Positions 6,922 through 63,098 of a stretch of DNA of 64,000 bases are shown here, in pieces (position 1 is the stretch's first letter; each line of letters opens with the position of its first letter). A program made the position numbers and the translations under genes. The notes below the pieces were generated by a model that saw nothing but the letters and a program-made list of their open reading frames with translations, was not told the DNA's origin and did not search any database. The stretch is taken from the NCBI GenBank assembly GCA_015485695.1, contig WFTB01000027.1, positions 20,183 to 84,182 of the forward strand. Reading direction: 5' to 3'. This DNA is from Patescibacteria group bacterium (GTDB lineage Bacteria; Patescibacteriota; Patescibacteriia; WFTA01; S139-112).

Positions 6922-7701
6922 TTGTCACAAGAACGCATGGCTGATATACTAAGTCCGATAAAGAAGAAAAACATGAGTTCTGAGCAATTATTGGCACAAC
7001 CGATTAAGATAGAGCAGTTCGACGGTCCGTTTCACGTTCTCGTTGAGCTTTTGAATTCGAAAGAACTCGATATAACCGAAGTCAATTTGAGTGAAATAAC
7101 CGAACAGTACATAGAGGCTGTCAACAACCAGCGAGACACGGACCCTTATACATTGGCGGATTTTCTGGTTGTCGCGAGCAGGCTCATATATTTGAAGTCG
7201 AAGACCATACTGCCCATGTTGTTGCCGGAAGATGAGGACGAGGAATCTGTGGCGAATTTGGAAGACCAGCTCAAAATGTATAAACGATTTTACGAAGCCT
7301 CCAAAACAATAGGGGAGATGATCGATAATCGTAATATTATGCATGTTCGCGAAAAAATCGCGGTTGACGTTGGGGTTTTGTTTAACCCTCCGCATGCCGT
7401 AACCGGAGAAAAAATGAGAGACATATTTGCGAGTGTCGTGAACGGACTCGAACCTATTGTCAAGATTCCGGAAAAAGTTATAAAGAGAGTTGTGTCTCTC
7501 AGTGAAAAGATGAATCAGATACGAGAGCGAATCCTAAACAAAATGAATGCGAATTTCTCCGAACTGTTGAACGGAGCAGAAGGTAAGCCTGAATTGGTGG
7601 TAACTTTTTTGGCTGTTTTGGAGCTTGTCAAGCAAAAAGTCCTTATAGTAGACCAAGATGAACTGCATGGTGATATAACAATAACGAAAAAAACGGATTG
7701 A
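6922..7701 (+). CDS. scpA: Segregation and condensation protein A
   Basis: FDGPFHVLVELLNSKELDITEVNLSEITEQYIEAV matches the ScpA N-terminus. Its stop overlaps the scpB start (ATGA). Confidence 0.8.
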   Translation: MSQERMADILSPIKKKNMSSEQLLAQPIKIEQFDGPFHVLVELLNSKELDITEVNLSEITEQYIEAVNNQRDTDPYTLADFLVVASRLIYLKSKTILPMLLPEDEDEESVANLEDQLKMYKRFYEASKTIGEMIDNRNIMHVREKIAVDVGVLFNPPHAVTGEKMRDIFASVVNGLEPIVKIPEKVIKRVVSLSEKMNQIRERILNKMNANFSELLNGAEGKPELVVTFLAVLELVKQKVLIVDQDELHGDITITKKTD

Positions 7702-8345: not shown

Positions 8346-9239
8346 ATGTTTTTTACCATAATAGCTGGGGTAATGATTGCTCAGATATTAAACCCTTTTG
8401 TTGTCGGGTTTGAGTACATGGTTTCATTGGAATCCGCCCTTATTCGGCGCCCGGCCGTTTCAGAGCCTCCGGTTAGAGTAAACAAATCATCAATGGGTCC
8501 CGTGTTAACGGGAAGGGCGAGTATAGTTATTGACAGAGAATCAAGACGTGTTCTTTGGGCCGATGGACAGTATCTGAGTTTTCCGATAGCGAGCATAAGC
8601 AAGCTCATGACGGCATTGGTCTTCCTTGAGACCAAGCCGGATTTGTCCGAATACTATACCTTATCTTCTGAAGACATGACCAAAGGCGGAAACGTGTATA
8701 TAAAACAGGGTGATGCCGTTCGCGTCAGGGATATGTTGTATTCGGCTCTCATCGCGTCTGATAACAATTCCGCGCAAGGGCTGGTTAGTGCTTCCGGTCT
8801 TTCGAAGGAAGAATTCATAAATCGCATGAACGTTCGCGCGAGCGAGATAGGCATGTTGCATTCGTCGTTTCAAGAGGTGACCGGTTTGAGCTTTACGAAT
8901 GTTTCTTCGGTGCAGGATGTTGCGTTGCTTTTGGACGAAGCTCTCAGAAATCCGGTAATCAGTGACGCCGTATCCAGAAAAAGTTATGAATTCACCTCAC
9001 AATCAGGGAACAACTACAAATTGTACAATACGAATAAGTTGCTTGGTTCGTATTTGGACGTAATTGGCGGCAAAACCGGGTTTAACAACGAAGCCAGGTA
9101 TAATTTGGCGGTCGCGATCAGGGGAGAGGATGAACAAGAATTGTTGGTTGTCGTATTGGGAAGCAAGTCTATCGATTCGAGATTTCGGGACGCGAAAATT
9201 CTTGCAGATTGGGCGTTTAGAAATTATTCATGGAATTAA
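8346..9239 (+). CDS. D-alanyl-D-alanine carboxypeptidase (serine-type, PBP5/6-like)
   Basis: SxxK (SISKLMT), SxN (SDNNS) and KTG (GGKTGFN) active-site motifs. N-terminal hydrophobic segment. Confidence 0.75.
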   Translation: MFFTIIAGVMIAQILNPFVVGFEYMVSLESALIRRPAVSEPPVRVNKSSMGPVLTGRASIVIDRESRRVLWADGQYLSFPIASISKLMTALVFLETKPDLSEYYTLSSEDMTKGGNVYIKQGDAVRVRDMLYSALIASDNNSAQGLVSASGLSKEEFINRMNVRASEIGMLHSSFQEVTGLSFTNVSSVQDVALLLDEALRNPVISDAVSRKSYEFTSQSGNNYKLYNTNKLLGSYLDVIGGKTGFNNEARYNLAVAIRGEDEQELLVVVLGSKSIDSRFRDAKILADWAFRNYSWN

Positions 9240-13034: not shown

Positions 13035-13109
13035 GGGGGTGTCGGTTAATGGCTAAACCACTGGCCTCCAAAGCCAGGACTGGGGGTTCGAATCCCTCCG
13101 CCCCTGCCA
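13035..13109 (+). tRNA. tRNA-Trp (anticodon CCA)
   Basis: Anticodon stem CTGGC/GCCAG with loop CTCCAAA. 3' end CGCCCCTGCCA matches E. coli tRNA-Trp. The CCA is encoded. Confidence 0.85.
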
Positions 13110-13370
13110 CTAAGGATTTTACCTTGTTGGGATTACGAGAAAGTTCGAACGCTGGCTAATTTCGGTGTTCGATTAAGTATATCTTGGTAAGTTGGAAAAT
13201 CTTCAAAGACAAGTCCGAATAGGGCTTGTTTTTGGTTGATATTTTCAGTATCTTCAATGATTTTAGCGGATGTGTTTTCTTTGCAAGATGTTTTTAGACG
13301 TTAAATTTAAAGCTCAACGCCAATCCATGCTCGCATTATGAGCAGTTAAAAATTTATGGTATAATTAGAA

Positions 13371-13397
13371 ATCTCCAATTCGCGCGAATAGGCGAAT
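13371..13397. repeat. Conserved palindromic motif copy 3 (atctccaattcgcgcgaataggcgaat), 16 nt upstream of the CYTH gene
   Basis: 26/27 identity to the copy-1/2 core. An extended -10 (TGgTATAAT, 13357-13365) lies immediately upstream. Confidence 0.8.
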
Positions 13398-13413
13398 TAT
13401 ACATCCATAACAT

Positions 13414-13983
13414 ATGGACGACGGTTATAAAGAAATTGAAACTCGGTTTTTAGATATTGACGTTGAAGACCTAGAAAGACGATTAGGTAAACTCGGTGCA
13501 ACTAACAAGGGTGAAGCTTTTTTGAAAGAGACGATATTTTTAGATCGTAATGGAAACTGGGAGAATGACTTTAAAGTAGTTAGGCTTCGTGTGTTTTCAG
13601 GTGGAAAAGTAAAACTTTCGTATAAACGTTTTGTGTCGCATGATATTGACGGTACTCGAGAGATAGAATTGAGTCTTGATGAGAATCCGAAAAAAATAAG
13701 CCAGTTTTTAGAAGCTATTGACTTAGTGGTCTATCGCTACCAAGAAAAGAAACGGCATACATATGAACTTGAAGGAGTCACTGTTGATATTGACACGTGG
13801 CCTTCCATCCCCACATACGTAGAACTGGAAGGCGAATCAGAAGAAGCTCTTAAGGGAGTTGCAGAAAAGCTTGGGCTTGATTGGTCAGAAGCAGTGTTCA
13901 AGGATGCGCAAGCAATCATTGAGATGTATATAAAAAAGTCTTTTAACGATATAAAATATTTCACATTTGACAGGATTGAATAG
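13414..13983 (+). CDS. CYTH-domain protein (triphosphate tunnel metalloenzyme / CyaB-like)
   Basis: N-terminal EIETRFL (ExExK signature), internal basic and acidic beta-strand residues, and a C-terminal VDIDTWPSIPTYVELEGES. Confidence 0.65.
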   Translation: MDDGYKEIETRFLDIDVEDLERRLGKLGATNKGEAFLKETIFLDRNGNWENDFKVVRLRVFSGGKVKLSYKRFVSHDIDGTREIELSLDENPKKISQFLEAIDLVVYRYQEKKRHTYELEGVTVDIDTWPSIPTYVELEGESEEALKGVAEKLGLDWSEAVFKDAQAIIEMYIKKSFNDIKYFTFDRIE

Positions 13984-13989
13984 TAACAA

Positions 13990-14016
13990 ATCTATAATTC
14001 GCGCGAATAGGCGAAT
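13990..14016. repeat. Conserved palindromic motif copy 4 (atctataattcgcgcgaataggcgaat), 11 nt upstream of the second CYTH gene
   Basis: 25/27 identity to the copy-1 core. Confidence 0.8.
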
Positions 14017-14027
14017 ACTAGAATCGT

Positions 14028-14570
14028 ATGAGAGAAATTGAAGTAAAGGCTAAGATATCTAATAAGGAGAAGGTTTATCAAAGTCTTCTTGCGCGTGGGT
14101 GAGAATTTGCTGATCCTGTTGAATAGAATGATATTATTTTCCTTCGAAAAGGTAAGAAACTTCTTGAAGTAGAGTCGGGTGATTCTGTGCTTCGTGTTCG
14201 CAAGGTGGGAGATACGGCTAAACTGACGTATAAAGAGTATGTTTCAAACCAACTTGACTGTATCGAAGAGGGGCTTGCCATCGCTGATGCGGACACTATG
14301 CGACGTATCATCGAGCGTCTTGGATTTATCGAAGTAATCCAGGTGCACAAGAAACGTATTACCATCAAATACAAGGATTATGAGATTTGCTTCGATATTG
14401 TCGATGACCTTGGTGCTTTTATAGAGGTGGAGAAAATAGTACCAGATGATGAGGGTGATGGGGTGCAAGACGAGCTGTACGAATTTCTTTCCGAACTTGG
14501 GTTTACCAAGGAAGATAGGGTGACAATCGGGTATGACGTGCTCATGTTTATATTGAAACATCAAAGTTAA
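14028..14570 (+). pseudogene. CYTH-domain paralog interrupted by two in-frame stop codons
   Basis: A single reading frame spells MREIEVKAKISNKEKVYQSLLARG-TGA(14100)-EFADPVE-TAG(14124)-NDIIFLRKG...VRKVGDTAKLTYKEY..., which aligns with CYTH/CyaB proteins across both stops. The ORF track only calls 14187..14570. Confidence 0.55.
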
Positions 14571-14580
14571 TAAAAGCGAT

Positions 14581-15228
14581 ATGCAAGATACAAAATATTT
14601 TTTACACGGAGGGGATATCGGCAATTTCCTTGAGCGTGGAATGGTGGCAGATTTTTTTCAAGAACCAGGGTGTCGGCATATACTATATATCGGATTCCAT
14701 CACCAAAGATATGACCTAGGGTTTATCAAAAACATCAGAAACAGTATTGCTCAAGGTGTCAAATTCACCGTATATGAAAAGGGAAGCGCAAAGAATAGCA
14801 TCAATCAATTAAGCACGATTGATGGCGTATATATAGGTGGCGGAAACGAACAAGAGCTGTTAACTGCCTTTGATGAGGACAATTTTCGAGAGCCGTTTGT
14901 TAAATGGCTAAAATCGGGCAACGCAAAGGCGTATGTGGGTTCAAGCGCGGGTGTGCAGGTCTTGGGCAAGAAATACTATAGTTGGGAAGAAGAAGTGAAA
15001 GATTGGGATACTGCCCAAGATAATGGGTTCGGTATTTTTGAAAACTCTTTATTTGAGGTTCATGTTACGCAAAGAAACAGAAGATTTTTGATTGACAAAG
15101 CAATCCGGGAAGAAAGTGACATAAAACATATTTACGGAATCGACGAGGGCTCGGCAATTGTGTTGCAAGTTGGAAAGGAAGATTGTCCCGAAATAATCGA
15201 AGGTGGTGCATATGTATATAAGAAATAA
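14581..15228 (+). CDS. Peptidase S51-like (dipeptidase E / cyanophycinase-like)
   Basis: GGGNE and GSSAG motifs are characteristic of the S51 class-I glutamine-amidotransferase-like fold. Confidence 0.45.
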   Translation: MQDTKYFLHGGDIGNFLERGMVADFFQEPGCRHILYIGFHHQRYDLGFIKNIRNSIAQGVKFTVYEKGSAKNSINQLSTIDGVYIGGGNEQELLTAFDEDNFREPFVKWLKSGNAKAYVGSSAGVQVLGKKYYSWEEEVKDWDTAQDNGFGIFENSLFEVHVTQRNRRFLIDKAIREESDIKHIYGIDEGSAIVLQVGKEDCPEIIEGGAYVYKK

Positions 15229-15229
15229 C

Positions 15230-16126
15230 ATGAAAATATCCATCATTGACATTGGAACGAACAGTATTAAGCATTCTGTTTTTTGTATACGGAACAAAAA
15301 GAAAACACTCATTTCGTATGAGCGGTTTTCCGAGGTGAATCTCGGATCAAACAGAGACCATATCGAGCCTGACACGGCAGATAAAATTTTTGCCACGTTG
15401 CGGGCGTACAAGGAGAGAAACGATGAGGTAGGTGTGGAGAAAACACGACTTGTCGGAACCGACATCCTTCGCACCGCGGATAACGCATTGAAGTTTACTG
15501 AACGCGTAGAGAAATTATTCGGTGTTCCGGTTGAGGTTATCTCTCATGAGCGTGAGGGGTATTATCTTTATCGGGGTTTACGTGATGTAGTGCCCGAAGG
15601 GACAATATTTGGCGCGATTAATTGTGGTGGAGGGAGTATTGAGATTGTAATCGGTGATACGAGTGAACTTATTGATAATATCCTAATCCCGTTTGGGGTG
15701 AACGCTCTGCGCAAACAGTTTGGAAGTAAAGATGACCCAAACACAGTCGACTGGAATGGTCTTGAAACATATCTTGAACAAGAAATGAACGTGGGGCGAA
15801 CGACACTTGATTATTTTTTCTTGAGCGGAGTGTATGATTTTCTCAATATCGCCGGCAGAGCCATAGGGTTTGAGTATGACTCTTGCGATATACGGGACCA
15901 TCCTATTAAGACAGATACGCCAACGTATAGCCAACATGCTGATGTGATCAAACGAACCGCCATCGAAACGCTCAGAGACGCCTATCCGAAAAATCCAAAA
16001 TACGCGGATAATTTTGCCATAGGTGAAATGGTATACTATACAGCAGTGAAAAAACTCGGCGTGGAAGAAGTGATTCCCAGTCCGTATGAGTATACCGACG
16101 GTCTCATCGCGGAGATGATTGAGTGA
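15230..16126 (+). CDS. Ppx/GppA-family phosphatase (ASKHA fold)
   Basis: MKISIIDIGTNSIKHSVF matches the Ppx/GppA N-terminal phosphate-1 motif. Length is about 300 aa. Confidence 0.6.
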   Translation: MKISIIDIGTNSIKHSVFCIRNKKKTLISYERFSEVNLGSNRDHIEPDTADKIFATLRAYKERNDEVGVEKTRLVGTDILRTADNALKFTERVEKLFGVPVEVISHEREGYYLYRGLRDVVPEGTIFGAINCGGGSIEIVIGDTSELIDNILIPFGVNALRKQFGSKDDPNTVDWNGLETYLEQEMNVGRTTLDYFFLSGVYDFLNIAGRAIGFEYDSCDIRDHPIKTDTPTYSQHADVIKRTAIETLRDAYPKNPKYADNFAIGEMVYYTAVKKLGVEEVIPSPYEYTDGLIAEMIE

Positions 16127-16152: not shown

Positions 16153-16755
16153 ATGCGAAAAATAATTCTTTTTGATGCTGACGGAGTCATCATTGATAAA
16201 CCCAAACTGTTCAGTGAAGTTTTCTCCAAAGAGCATAATGTTTCTCTGGATAAGATACTGCCGTTTTTTGAATGTGAAATGGAGCGATGTTTGGTCGGTG
16301 ACATGGACGTAAAAGACGCTCTCGCGCGTTATGTTGACGCGTGGGGTTGGAGTGGAACAATAGATGAATTGCTTGAGTATTGGTTTGACAAAGAACATCA
16401 TGTAAATGAACAAGTGCGTGATTATATCTTAACACTTCGTGACAGGGGAGTGTTTTGTTGTCTTGCGACGAACAATGAAATGCGAAGGGTGCGGTACATG
16501 GCTGAAAACATGGGATTTGGAAAACTGTTTGACCAAGTGCTCTCTTCCGCTCATGTAAAAGCGAGAAAACCGGAACGCGCGTTTTGGGAGAATATTCATG
16601 TTGCAATTGGCGAACCGGATTATGACAATGTGTTGTTCTGGGATGATAAGCAAGAAAACGTAAATTCCGCGCGTGATTTTGGGTATCACGCCGAACGGTA
16701 TGAACAATTCGATGCTTTCAAACAAAAGACAGGGATGTGGCTAGAGCATGGATAG
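16153..16755 (+). CDS. HAD-superfamily hydrolase
   Basis: Motif I ILFDADGVII (DxDG). Later motifs are consistent with HAD phosphatases. Confidence 0.7.
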   Translation: MRKIILFDADGVIIDKPKLFSEVFSKEHNVSLDKILPFFECEMERCLVGDMDVKDALARYVDAWGWSGTIDELLEYWFDKEHHVNEQVRDYILTLRDRGVFCCLATNNEMRRVRYMAENMGFGKLFDQVLSSAHVKARKPERAFWENIHVAIGEPDYDNVLFWDDKQENVNSARDFGYHAERYEQFDAFKQKTGMWLEHG

Positions 16756-16782: not shown

Positions 16783-16818
16783 CCGTGAGCAGTACAACTA
16801 CCGTGAGCAGTACAACTA
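16783..16818. repeat. Tandem direct repeat, 2 x 18 bp (ccgtgagcagtacaacta)
   Basis: Two exact adjacent copies followed by a partial third (ccg). Seen directly in the sequence. The ORF-track peptide REQYNYREQYNY reflects it. Confidence 0.8.
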
Positions 16819-16897
16819 CCGCGTAATTATGAATGTACCAATACATGTGTCGGTGATAAATAACCCAATCAAAATGTATTGTGCAAATCTTAAAATT

Positions 16898-16943
16898 TTA
16901 TGCCTCAAAATAACACGATCGACGTCAGATGAGGCACGGGAAA
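16898..16943 (+). repeat. REP/MITE-like palindromic element A (ATGCCTCA-aaataacacgatcgacgtcaga-TGAGGCACGGGAAA)
   Basis: Terminal inverted repeats flank a CGATCG-containing core. Member of a 6-copy family in this window. Confidence 0.7.
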
Positions 16944-16978
16944 ATTCATGATTGTTGTATTTTTTGCGAATCTTTAAA

Positions 16979-17026
16979 TCCCATGCCTCATATATACACG
17001 ATCGACGATATTTGAAGCACGGGAAA
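16979..17026 (+). repeat. REP/MITE-like palindromic element B (CCCATGCCTCA-tatatacacgatcgacgatattt-GAAGCACGGGAAA)
   Basis: Same family and same orientation as A. Slightly degenerate right arm. Confidence 0.65.
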
Positions 17027-17122
17027 CGCTAAAAATCGATAACGAATTTGTCTAATACATGCATTTGATTTTCAGGCGTGGAAGTGATACTGTGTAAGCG
17101 GTAGGGTGTATCGCTTTTTGAT

Positions 17123-26529: not shown

Positions 26530-26574
26530 TTTCCCGTGCCTCATCTGACGTCGATCGTGTTATTTTGAGGCGCG
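26530..26574 (-). repeat. REP/MITE-like palindromic element C (reverse orientation relative to A/B)
   Basis: tttCCCGTGCCTCAtctgacgtcgatcgtgttatttTGAGGCGCG. Its core is the exact reverse complement of the element A core. Confidence 0.7.
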
Positions 26575-26617
26575 AAAAATAGAGTTAACACATCGCTTAG
26601 AAGACATGGTTCCGTGT

Positions 26618-26663
26618 TTCCATGCCTCATTTGACGTCGATCGTGTTATTTTGAGGCATGGGA
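26618..26663 (-). repeat. REP/MITE-like palindromic element D
   Basis: tttCCATGCCTCAtttgacgtcgatcgtgttatttTGAGGCATGGGa. Confidence 0.7.
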
Positions 26664-62487: not shown

Positions 62488-62540
62488 AAAATCCCATGCC
62501 TCAAAATACGTCGATCGTGTTATTTTGAGGCATGGGATTT
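62488..62540 (-). repeat. REP/MITE-like palindromic element E (most symmetric copy)
   Basis: aaATCCCATGCCTCAAAATAcgtcgatcgtgtTATTTTGAGGCATGGGATtt has 16-bp perfect arms. Confidence 0.75.
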
Positions 62541-62577: not shown

Positions 62578-62615
62578 TTCATGCCTCATCTGATTTCAAT
62601 CGTGTGTGGTTGAGG
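62578..62615 (-). repeat. REP/MITE-like element F (degenerate), overlapping the 3' end of the P-loop kinase gene
   Basis: tcATGCCTCAtctgatttcaatcgtgtgtggtTGAGGttg. Confidence 0.45.
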
Positions 62616-63098
62616 TTGTTTTGATTTTTGGCAAAATGAGACTATTGCTTCCGCAGTTTCTTCCGGTGTTTGATTTGTATTGTCAATAATTTTACCAAAA
62701 GCAGGATTTGGGATTCCAATATCATAATGATGTTGTATACGATTGCGTTCCCATTGTGTTAATTTCCTATCTTTAGTATCACTAAGGGTCTTTTTAATGT
62801 CTGGCGATAAAGTAAAAAAATATAGCTCATTATTACAAAGCTCCTTTTTTAGATACTCATAATTTTTTTGAGATAGTGGATATGGCACTGCAACATTATA
62901 TCCACGTTTAGCAAAATTATTGATAATTAGTACAGCATTTTCTAGGTTAATCGGAACTGCTTTGTCTATTTCCAGCCAATGGATAAATTCGTGAAAACTA
63001 TCAATTTCCATATTTGCTGTGTTAGGTATTTTGGTGGCAAGTATTTTGGCTATAGTAGATTTTCCAGCATTTATCGAGCCATTAATAAATATAATCAT
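62586..63098 (-). CDS. P-loop NTPase / small-molecule kinase-like protein (AAA_33/zeta-toxin-like fold)
   Basis: Walker A at the N-terminus (INGSINAGKSTIAKIL). 170 aa. Confidence 0.45.
   Translation of the reverse strand: MIIFINGSINAGKSTIAKILATKIPNTANMEIDSFHEFIHWLEIDKAVPINLENAVLIINNFAKRGYNVAVPYPLSQKNYEYLKKELCNNELYFFTLSPDIKKTLSDTKDRKLTQWERNRIQHHYDIGIPNPAFGKIIDNTNQTPEETAEAIVSFCQKSKQPQPHTIEIR

Follow-up and report, generated by a model that had tools for sequence, protein, structure and literature searches.

A near-invariant 32-bp element and a small ArsR-type regulator gene in Patescibacteria: a probable operator-regulator pair with variable targets

Introduction

HlyU/NolR-type regulators are dimeric winged-helix-turn-helix (wHTH) proteins which bind AT-rich inverted repeats at their own and at other promoters, and NolR is a global regulator with many scattered sites. 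The Patescibacteria (candidate phyla radiation, CPR) account for a large share of bacterial diversity, almost none of them is cultured and they encode few transcription factors. We know of no regulon in this group that has been defined experimentally. Here we describe a repeated element of about 32 bp and the gene of a small ArsR/SmtB-family protein (582-860) in a stretch of 64,000 nucleotides from contig WFTB01000027.1 of a Patescibacteria group bacterium. The whole stretch is called the window, and coordinates given without a locus handle are positions in it. The element is probably an operator bound by this sensor-less protein, which would regulate its own gene together with a regulon whose membership varies across the Patescibacteria.

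Four copies of the element in the window

The 21-mer AATTCGCGCGAATAGGCGAAT is present in four exact copies in the window, at 536, 846, 13377 and 13996, all on the + strand. In 100 dinucleotide-preserving shuffles of the window it occurred 0 times, and a repeat search of the window grouped the same four places as one family. The copies, numbered 1 to 4 by position, lie in the following sites:

527-558, + strand, site 1, TCAATCTCTAATTCGCGCGAATAGGCGAATAG; candidate operator upstream of the regulator gene
837-868, + strand, site 2, same sequence as site 1; lies over the 3' end of the regulator gene with its stop codon, in front of the next open reading frame (ORF)
13368-13399, + strand, site 3, GAAATCTCCAATTCGCGCGAATAGGCGAATTA; candidate operator, its 27-mer ending 16 nt upstream of the CYTH-domain gene CYTH1
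13987-14018, + strand, site 4, CAAATCTATAATTCGCGCGAATAGGCGAATAC; precedes CYTH2 and may also serve the S51, Ppx/GppA and HAD genes behind it

The 27-mers at 13371-13397 and 13990-14016 are each one position off copies 1 and 2, so that both match at 26 of 27 positions. A preliminary description of this DNA had given this value for copy 3 and 25 of 27 for copy 4; the latter needs correction.

Distribution and form of the element

The 20-nt core ATTCGCGCGAATAGGCGAAT was searched for, as an exact match, in one genome per GTDB species. At least 116 contigs were returned (loci, referred to by handles such as L001), where about one would be expected by chance. Nearly all of them are titled Patescibacteria and they cover many named groups, including Nomura-, Kaiser-, Yanofsky-, Harrison-, Lipton-, Lloyd- and Giovannonibacteria as well as Uhr-, Kerfeld-, Doudna- and Berkelbacteria. 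The titles of some third-party metagenome-assembled genomes with the core read Saccharibacteria or Gammaproteobacteria, but these labels are unverified. Among the viral contigs of IMG/VR the core had 0 matches, and a phage origin of the element was rejected on this count. The four window copies, described before as a candidate regulon of four members, are not private to this genome but one local instance of a system spread across the Patescibacteria.

In its usual form the element reads cTATTC-TCTA-ATTCGCGCGAAT-AGGC-GAATAG, a directional imperfect palindrome of about 32 bp. The general form is cTATTC-NNNN-ATTCGCGCGAAT-NNNN-GAATAG, with TCTA and AGGC as the commonest left and right spacers. When one mismatch was allowed in the 12-bp core, about 210 sites were collected from 876 kb, and in these the central palindrome ATTCGCGCGAAT and the right GAATAG are nearly invariant. 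Conservation extends beyond the searched 20-mer, from -10 to +23. The spacer arms are non-complementary: three of the four spacer positions pair less often than expected from shuffles (z -2 to -6), and full symmetry, with either arm type on both sides, is limited to a few sites. The element is composed of four GAAT/ATTC units in direct and inverted order. This composition, together with the non-complementary arms, suggests that the element is recognised by a protein rather than folding as an RNA hairpin.

An action as RNA, for instance as a hairpin in a 5' or 3' untranslated region, an attenuator or a small regulatory motif, would turn the ArsR-type gene into a mere frequent neighbour. Such a role would agree with the position of all four window copies on the coding strand, with the short hairpin which the core ATTCGCGCGAAT can form and with copies 3 and 4, which would be transcribed into 5' leaders given the -10 element at 13357-13365. 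However, an Rfam scan of the whole window at gathering thresholds returned three tRNAs only and no match to the element, and a permissive scan (E<=1) of 13250-14100 gave no match either. At regulator genes the -10 element usually follows the site, which is hence not part of that transcript. The site is also present in reversed orientation inside miaA, the spacer positions pair less often than in shuffled controls, and direct plus inverted GAAT repeats are typical of protein recognition. We therefore give an RNA element hardly any credence.

The element also breaks assemblies. The contigs in L001, L026, L032, L060 and L077 end at or within a site, and in L117, a public scaffold of the same locus as the window, a gap of 100 N (8591-8690) stands right after site 3, with the preceding 127 bp duplicated.

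The regulator gene and its linkage to the element

Sites 1 and 2 enclose a gene which is followed by a second ORF:

582-860, + strand, ArsR/SmtB-family winged-helix regulator, 92 aa; TAG stop (858-860) inside site 2, C-terminus ...SISNSRE*
869-1258, + strand, ORF of 129 aa after site 2, start TTG 869 or alternatively ATG 887; presumed local target

The regulator belongs to the ArsR type by its match to Pfam HTH_5 (30.7 bits, cut-off 22). Against NCBIfam NF033788 it scores 51.6 bits with a cut-off of 55, whereas its homologue in L061 reaches 55.5. The profile of the regulator matches HlyU with an E-value of 1e-12. An AlphaFold2 (AF2) model made from regulator homologues has a predicted local distance difference test score (pLDDT) of 90.5 and the order a1-a2-b-a3-aR-b-b-a5, with helices at residues 4-13, 16-28, 33-40, 44-56 and 79-90 and a hairpin at 60-73. 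In a Foldseek search with this model YgaV, HlyU, NolR, CzrA and SqrR were found at template modelling (TM) scores of about 0.8 (0.77-0.83 for YgaV, HlyU, NolR and CzrA). According to the model the regulator has a bona fide ArsR/SmtB fold.

The regulator family shows no variation in its recognition helix LSxKxTSKH and in the wing residues. Conserved cysteines are absent from the family alignments, and the only invariant histidine (H50) is located in the recognition helix. With no conserved Cys and no His outside this helix the protein has no classical sensor site and is not a classical metalloregulator.

The commonest family directly downstream of the sites is the ArsR-type HTH (HTH_5), with 16 of 81 ORFs in the first set. 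About 40 of the 116 motif loci contain ORFs which match a hidden Markov model (HMM) built from the small ArsR proteins, 43 ORFs in total with scores of 114-144 bits; almost every one abuts a site. Three weaker paralogues were found in addition. Using a wider site definition, 43 of 141 unique downstream ORFs fall into the regulator family. At motif loci these proteins are 86-93 aa long. Typically, one to four sites lie upstream of the regulator gene and one lies over its last codons and stop, followed by a variable gene; the stop is formed either as ...L* via the TAA in TCTCTAA or as ...SNSRE* via the TAG in GAATAG. The window shows exactly this layout at 527-868.

The linkage was also approached from the protein side. 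A profile search independent of the motif gave 4061 members of the regulator family; those listed are 86-104 aa long and come from Patescibacteria where an organism is named, and databases call them only generically an ArsR-family regulator. Five regulator homologues (L201-L205) were selected with no other criteria than the protein profile and the length of the contig. All five carry a site 20-60 nt upstream, and the stop-codon site is intact in four of them and truncated in the fifth. A site directly upstream of the regulator gene is thus found in the window, in 5/5 independent homologues and in most of the roughly 40 motif loci. In 392 kb around CYTH1 homologues of other lineages there was no member of the regulator family and a single site. 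The pairing of motif and regulator proposed in the preliminary description is supported by these counts, and the gene at 582-860 very probably encodes the cognate regulator.

Site 1 ends 10 nt before a -10-like TATAAG (569-574), which in turn stands 7 nt before the regulator ATG. Site 1 thus lies over the -35 region of a transcript which is probably leaderless, an arrangement shared by the regulator genes of L201, L202 and L205. Leaderless transcripts are suggested by the spacing of about 7 nt between the end of such a -10-like hexamer and the start codon (569-584 in the window, about 2990-3003 in L201 and L202). In L087 (6721-6981 and 7526-7801), L016 and L093 two regulator copies lie near each other and each is bracketed by its own sites, and L094 carries at least 10 sites within 6 kb.

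Placement of the sites relative to genes

Exact sites were compared with random positions in the same loci. Only 10% of the sites lie within an ORF on the same strand, compared to 65% of the random positions. An ORF of at least 80 aa starts at most 120 nt downstream of 57% of the sites, compared to 15%, and a divergent gene start lies upstream of 24%, compared to 11%. Hexamers resembling a -10 element are enriched on both sides of the sites at variable distance. A fixed spacing between site and -10 element, as an activator would need, was rejected as the histogram shows no single peak and the enrichment is on both sides. This variable placement around core promoters would fit an operator that is used mainly for repression. 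With its conservation and its intergenic, directional placement the motif behaves like the operator it had been taken for.

Some sites lie inside genes. In ten loci (L007, L020, L021, L024, L037, L038, L073, L074, L088 and L098) the 20-mer is found reversed within miaA, the gene of tRNA dimethylallyltransferase, where it encodes I-R-L-F-A-R-I, and the miaA DNA around it is only about 65-70% identical between these loci. In L092 a site (about 1774, minus strand) lies inside a dinB-type Y-polymerase gene of the IMS family, whose frame translates it as S-L-I-R-A-N-R-R. For L115 the translation suggests that a forward site near 7507 (minus strand) is also part of miaA, a few codons from the place of the reversed site.

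Sites of this kind, and a protein without sensor site, could also point to a structural role, in which the ArsR-like or another protein binds in a centromere-like or nucleoid-organising fashion as AspA of pNOB8 or ParB at parS do. The near-invariant palindromic core in deep lineages recalls parS, clusters of three to six sites surround the regulator gene in L026, L049, L087 and L094, and the regulator has weak profile and structural similarity to AspA. However, the latter similarity (E ~1e-3) is far weaker than that to HlyU, CzrA and NolR, and ParB is encoded separately in related loci. Moreover, the sites are rare in coding sequence and directed towards gene starts, have -10-like elements on their flanks and are scattered before functionally related single genes instead of being clustered in one chromosomal region. 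We consider a purely structural function improbable.

The CYTH locus

Sites 3 and 4 belong to a group of genes with the following features:

13035-13109, + strand, tRNA-Trp; neighbour only
13203-13235, terminator-like hairpin which separates tRNA-Trp from the CYTH1 promoter
13357-13365, + strand, extended -10 element TGGTATAAT of the CYTH1 promoter, directly before site 3
13414-13983, + strand, CYTH1, 189 aa, intact, ATG at 13414; Pfam CYTH 41.7 bits, E 1.4e-10
14028-14570, + strand, CYTH2 ORF, ATG at 14028, 11 nt after the 27-mer; Pfam CYTH 77.4 bits, E 1.6e-21
14581-15228, + strand, Peptidase_S51-like gene
15203-16126, + strand, Ppx/GppA-family phosphatase gene
16153-16755, + strand, HAD hydrolase gene

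The gaps of 16 and 11 nt between the motif and the two start codons, as well as the extended -10 element before copy 3, are as first described. From this -10 element site 3 would occupy about +1 to +27 of the CYTH1 transcript, and the comparison with CIRCE/HrcA drawn earlier is apt for such a highly conserved operator at about +1. In site 4 the left arm contains a perfect TATAAT (13993-13998). The S51, Ppx/GppA and HAD genes are close-packed behind CYTH2 and may be co-transcribed from the site 4 promoter. The Ppx/GppA ORF codes for 307 aa from a GTG that overlaps the S51 gene. In near-identical assemblies its gene calls are split into 72+230 aa or 36+263 aa, which start-site uncertainty or small indels may explain.

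The two CYTH genes had been called paralogous. Both do match Pfam CYTH, but they come from different subfamilies and not from a recent duplication, as they are only 25% identical over 86 residues (E 3e-4). CYTH1 has EIETRF at its N-terminus in place of the ExExK signature and is part of a CPR-wide subfamily with homologues of about 50% identity. The otherwise intact 180-codon frame of CYTH2 is interrupted by a TGA (14100-14102) and a TAG (14124-14126). These stops are real, as both are present in four independent assemblies (L117-L120) which differ elsewhere. Judged from its reading frame, CYTH2 is probably a pseudogene, perhaps a recent one; otherwise recoding or read-through would be needed. 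The CYTH homologue of L201 has a Gln opposite the TAG (aligned by eye).

The position of the CYTH locus directly behind tRNA-Trp had been interpreted as a horizontally acquired island that encodes a nucleotide-signalling or defence module of HTH, toxin-like and CYTH genes. CYTH enzymes act on nucleotide triphosphates, and the ORF at 869-1258 is weakly similar to DUF4258. However, the latter match (21.1 bits) is below the cut-off of 25 and the ORF was not found again in other loci. No repeat of tRNA-Trp of at least 14 nt exists elsewhere in the window, the GC content of 0.38-0.43 does not deviate from the overall 0.42, nor does the skew change. The called genes include no integrase, and those which follow have housekeeping functions (IleRS, RecO and the pilus gene PilM). 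Regulator and CYTH genes are 12.5 kb apart, among ribosomal-protein, nusG and tpiA genes. In PADLOC only the wHTH of the regulator resembled the HTH domains of Csa3/CasR, a generic similarity, and the CYTH, S51, Ppx and DUF4258-like proteins had no match. Neither the island nor the defence module is supported by these data, and we regard this interpretation as extremely unlikely.

A type II toxin-antitoxin pair was rejected on the same sub-threshold DUF4258 score, and also because no similar ORF stands beside other regulator copies and the downstream genes differ between loci. The DUF4258-like ORF and the 39-aa and 342-aa ORFs behind the regulator have no counterpart among the compared loci.

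An upstream site was found in 0 of 80 metagenome loci with CYTH1 homologues, which is a weak negative since these loci are also without the regulator family; CYTH was dropped on this count as a conserved regulon member. Two other lineages have CYTH beside a site, with the gene orders HAD-NUDIX-regulator-[site]-CYTH-NTP_transf_2-HAD-His_Phos in L201 and regulator-[site]-204 aa-CYTH1-type-...-HAD in L039, both of which echo the CYTH-...-HAD-His_Phos run of the window. CYTH is thus an occasional member of the regulon and does not belong to its core. Among the families for which enrichment near the motif could be expected from the preliminary description, the ArsR-like one is strongly and the CYTH one weakly associated, and for the DUF4258-like gene no association was seen in the compared loci. 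By their sequence context the CYTH genes are most likely local recruits to a widespread regulon and no part of a defence island.

Predicted targets in other lineages

The non-regulator genes adjacent to sites are mostly single and differ between lineages. They encode NUDIX (three), Ham1/ITPase (two), Fpg (two), methylpurine glycosylase (MPG) and MsrA proteins, a DnaQ/ExoX-like exonuclease, PD-(D/E)XK (two) and GIY-YIG proteins, DinB, RarA/MgsA and a PIF1-type helicase. Further members are a DUF559/Vsr-like nuclease, SpoU methylases (two), TspO (two), APH-type kinases (three), His_Phos, inositol monophosphatase (Inositol_P), PEBP, SDR, NYN and CYTH proteins, as well as an RNase H-like protein and an acylphosphatase which were identified by eye only. 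As a control, 100 non-adjacent genes from the same loci were annotated. These are dominated by AhpC, ABC ATPases, RelA/SpoT and tRNA synthetases, and none of HTH_5, NUDIX, Ham1 or Fpg is among the control families with at least two members. A link to RelA/SpoT was rejected, as the three RelA_SpoT matches of the control set stem from one conserved miaA-parB-relA neighbourhood. From the family names and this one modest control we infer that the targets share a theme, the upkeep of DNA, the nucleotide pool and phosphate esters.

Single miscellaneous genes next to a repeated element could also be cassettes, with the sites as recombination sites that delimit them in an integron-like or another kind of site-specific shuffling. 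Arrays of the order site-gene-site-gene are present in the window (regulator, CYTH1), L023, L035, L068 and L094, and CYTH1 stands between two sites beside the decayed CYTH2. NUDIX, glyoxalase-like, APH and small unknown genes resemble the cassette content of chromosomal integrons. TspO is enclosed by two sites in L068 and away from any site in L061, and between related loci DNA homology is often confined to the site-regulator-site block while the neighbours are different. However, synteny blocks that end at sites do not discriminate between operator and cassette, because sites lie at gene ends anyway. No integrase or recombinase is among the Pfam-annotated genes of L117-L120 and L201-L205, and without complementary arms no attC-like structure would fold. 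Further, most loci have a single site at a promoter, the sites are most strongly associated with a DNA-binding regulator, some of them lie within miaA and dinB, which are genes of the essential type, and the four assemblies of the window lineage show no presence/absence polymorphism. The cassette system once considered for this locus is therefore very unlikely.

Other repeats in the window

Just after the HAD gene, at 16786-16822, (G)TGAGCAGTACAACTACC is present twice as a tandem duplication. A second repeat family consists of 44-nt hairpin-forming elements (CCATGCCTCA...TGAGGCATGG), which are paired 83-86 nt apart at three intergenic places and in both orientations:

16898-16941 and 16981-17024, first pair
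26534-26577 and 26620-26663, second pair
62494-62537 and 62579-62622, third pair

For the first pair an Rfam scan of 16800-17100 at E<=1 gave no match.

Discussion

In the mechanism we propose, the protein of 582-860 would bind the four sites of the window, with more than one dimer per site as suggested by the four GAAT/ATTC units. Of the two sites around the regulator gene, one would act where the -35 region of the regulator promoter lies and the other at the stop codon before the next ORF. Site 3 would be contacted at about +1 of the CYTH1 promoter, and site 4 contains the predicted -10 element for CYTH2 and perhaps for the S51, Ppx/GppA and HAD genes. Judged by position and by analogy to the family, binding most likely represses. 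The regulator would thus limit its own level and that of its targets, and the stop-codon site would control the next gene and may stop read-through. In the window this repression would apply to the ORF at 869, to CYTH1 and to the transcript that begins in site 4. The regulator with its bracketing sites would form the constant core of the system. The target set would vary by lineage and be rich in genes for DNA repair, nucleotide-pool sanitising and phosphoester hydrolysis.

Several points weigh against this model. The pairing of protein and site is deduced from co-localisation, and the protein has no conserved Cys/His sensor site through which the regulon could be induced. The distance from site to -10 element ranges from overlap to about 30 nt upstream, so simple promoter occlusion cannot account for every site, and activation or cooperative looping may take its place. 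Near-invariance of about 30 bp over deep lineages exceeds that of most operators, and some sites are intragenic (miaA in 10 loci, dinB in one). The functional theme was judged by Pfam names and one modest control, and the CYTH link is lineage-specific. Finally, related genomes have very different target genes around a constant site-regulator-site block, which would also fit a mobile or recombining module. Taken together, we still regard an operator bound by the small ArsR/SmtB protein as the probable explanation.

A more far-reaching idea, speculative and on balance unlikely, is that site and mini-ArsR constitute the master switch of a genome-integrity and nucleotide-sanitation response specific to Patescibacteria, comparable in function to LexA/SOS or DdrO/RDRM. 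In that case the site-regulator-site block would be a portable module, and the regulon would change its members through recombination or through 32-bp sites that arise de novo. Induction would require a partner not yet seen, for example a protease, an anti-repressor or a small ligand bound at the dimer interface.

A conserved regulator-operator pair which can be found by plain sequence search offers a direct handle on gene regulation in the CPR. Both partners, a protein of 92 aa and a duplex of 32 bp, are accessible to synthesis and to tests in vitro, and from the sites co-regulated genes could be predicted for thousands of metagenome-assembled genomes. The predicted targets, i.e., DNA repair, nucleotide-pool cleaning and phosphohydrolases, point to what these nucleotide-scavenging cells protect most.

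Comparison with known systems

The best matches in sequence and structure are the non-metal-sensing ArsR/SmtB proteins HlyU (Vibrio), NolR (Sinorhizobium), YgaV, SqrR and BigR, which share fold and size class with the CPR regulator. The latter is shorter (86-93 aa) and without the Cys pairs by which HlyU, SqrR and BigR sense redox state or persulfides. Compared to the HlyU/NolR group its site is longer (about 32 bp, four GAAT units) and far more conserved, and its gene is bracketed, with the stop codon in a site.

HrcA-CIRCE is similar in having an unusually conserved inverted-repeat operator over deep lineages, at or just after the transcription start and including the operon of the repressor itself. 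However, HrcA belongs to an unrelated protein family, and CIRCE controls a small, constant set of genes (groE, dnaK), unlike the variable targets here. CIRCE is also a perfect 9-N9-9 inverted repeat, while the CPR site is directional with non-complementary spacers.

With LexA and its SOS box, or DdrO/IrrE and the RDRM, the system shares a palindromic operator before the own gene and before scattered repair genes (here dinB, rarA, fpg, mpg, an exonuclease and a helicase). The repressor fold is another one, and neither self-cleavage nor a partner protease is evident. Many CPR targets are not repair genes (TspO, APH, CYTH, phosphatases), and the link to damage is drawn from gene names only. Integron attC sites are likewise repeated elements between single miscellaneous genes with copies in one orientation, but the CPR site comes without an integrase in the annotated loci, has 32 bp and no complementary arms, is associated with promoters and the regulator and also occurs inside genes.

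No description of the element or of ArsR regulons in CPR/Parcubacteria was found in Rfam or in the open-access literature searched. The kind of system, an autoregulated ArsR-family regulator with a palindromic operator, is familiar, while this particular one appears to be undescribed. It stands out by a site that is long and nearly invariant across deep lineages, by a regulator gene that is enclosed by sites and has its stop codon within one of them, by sites inside miaA and by a regulon of fluid membership.

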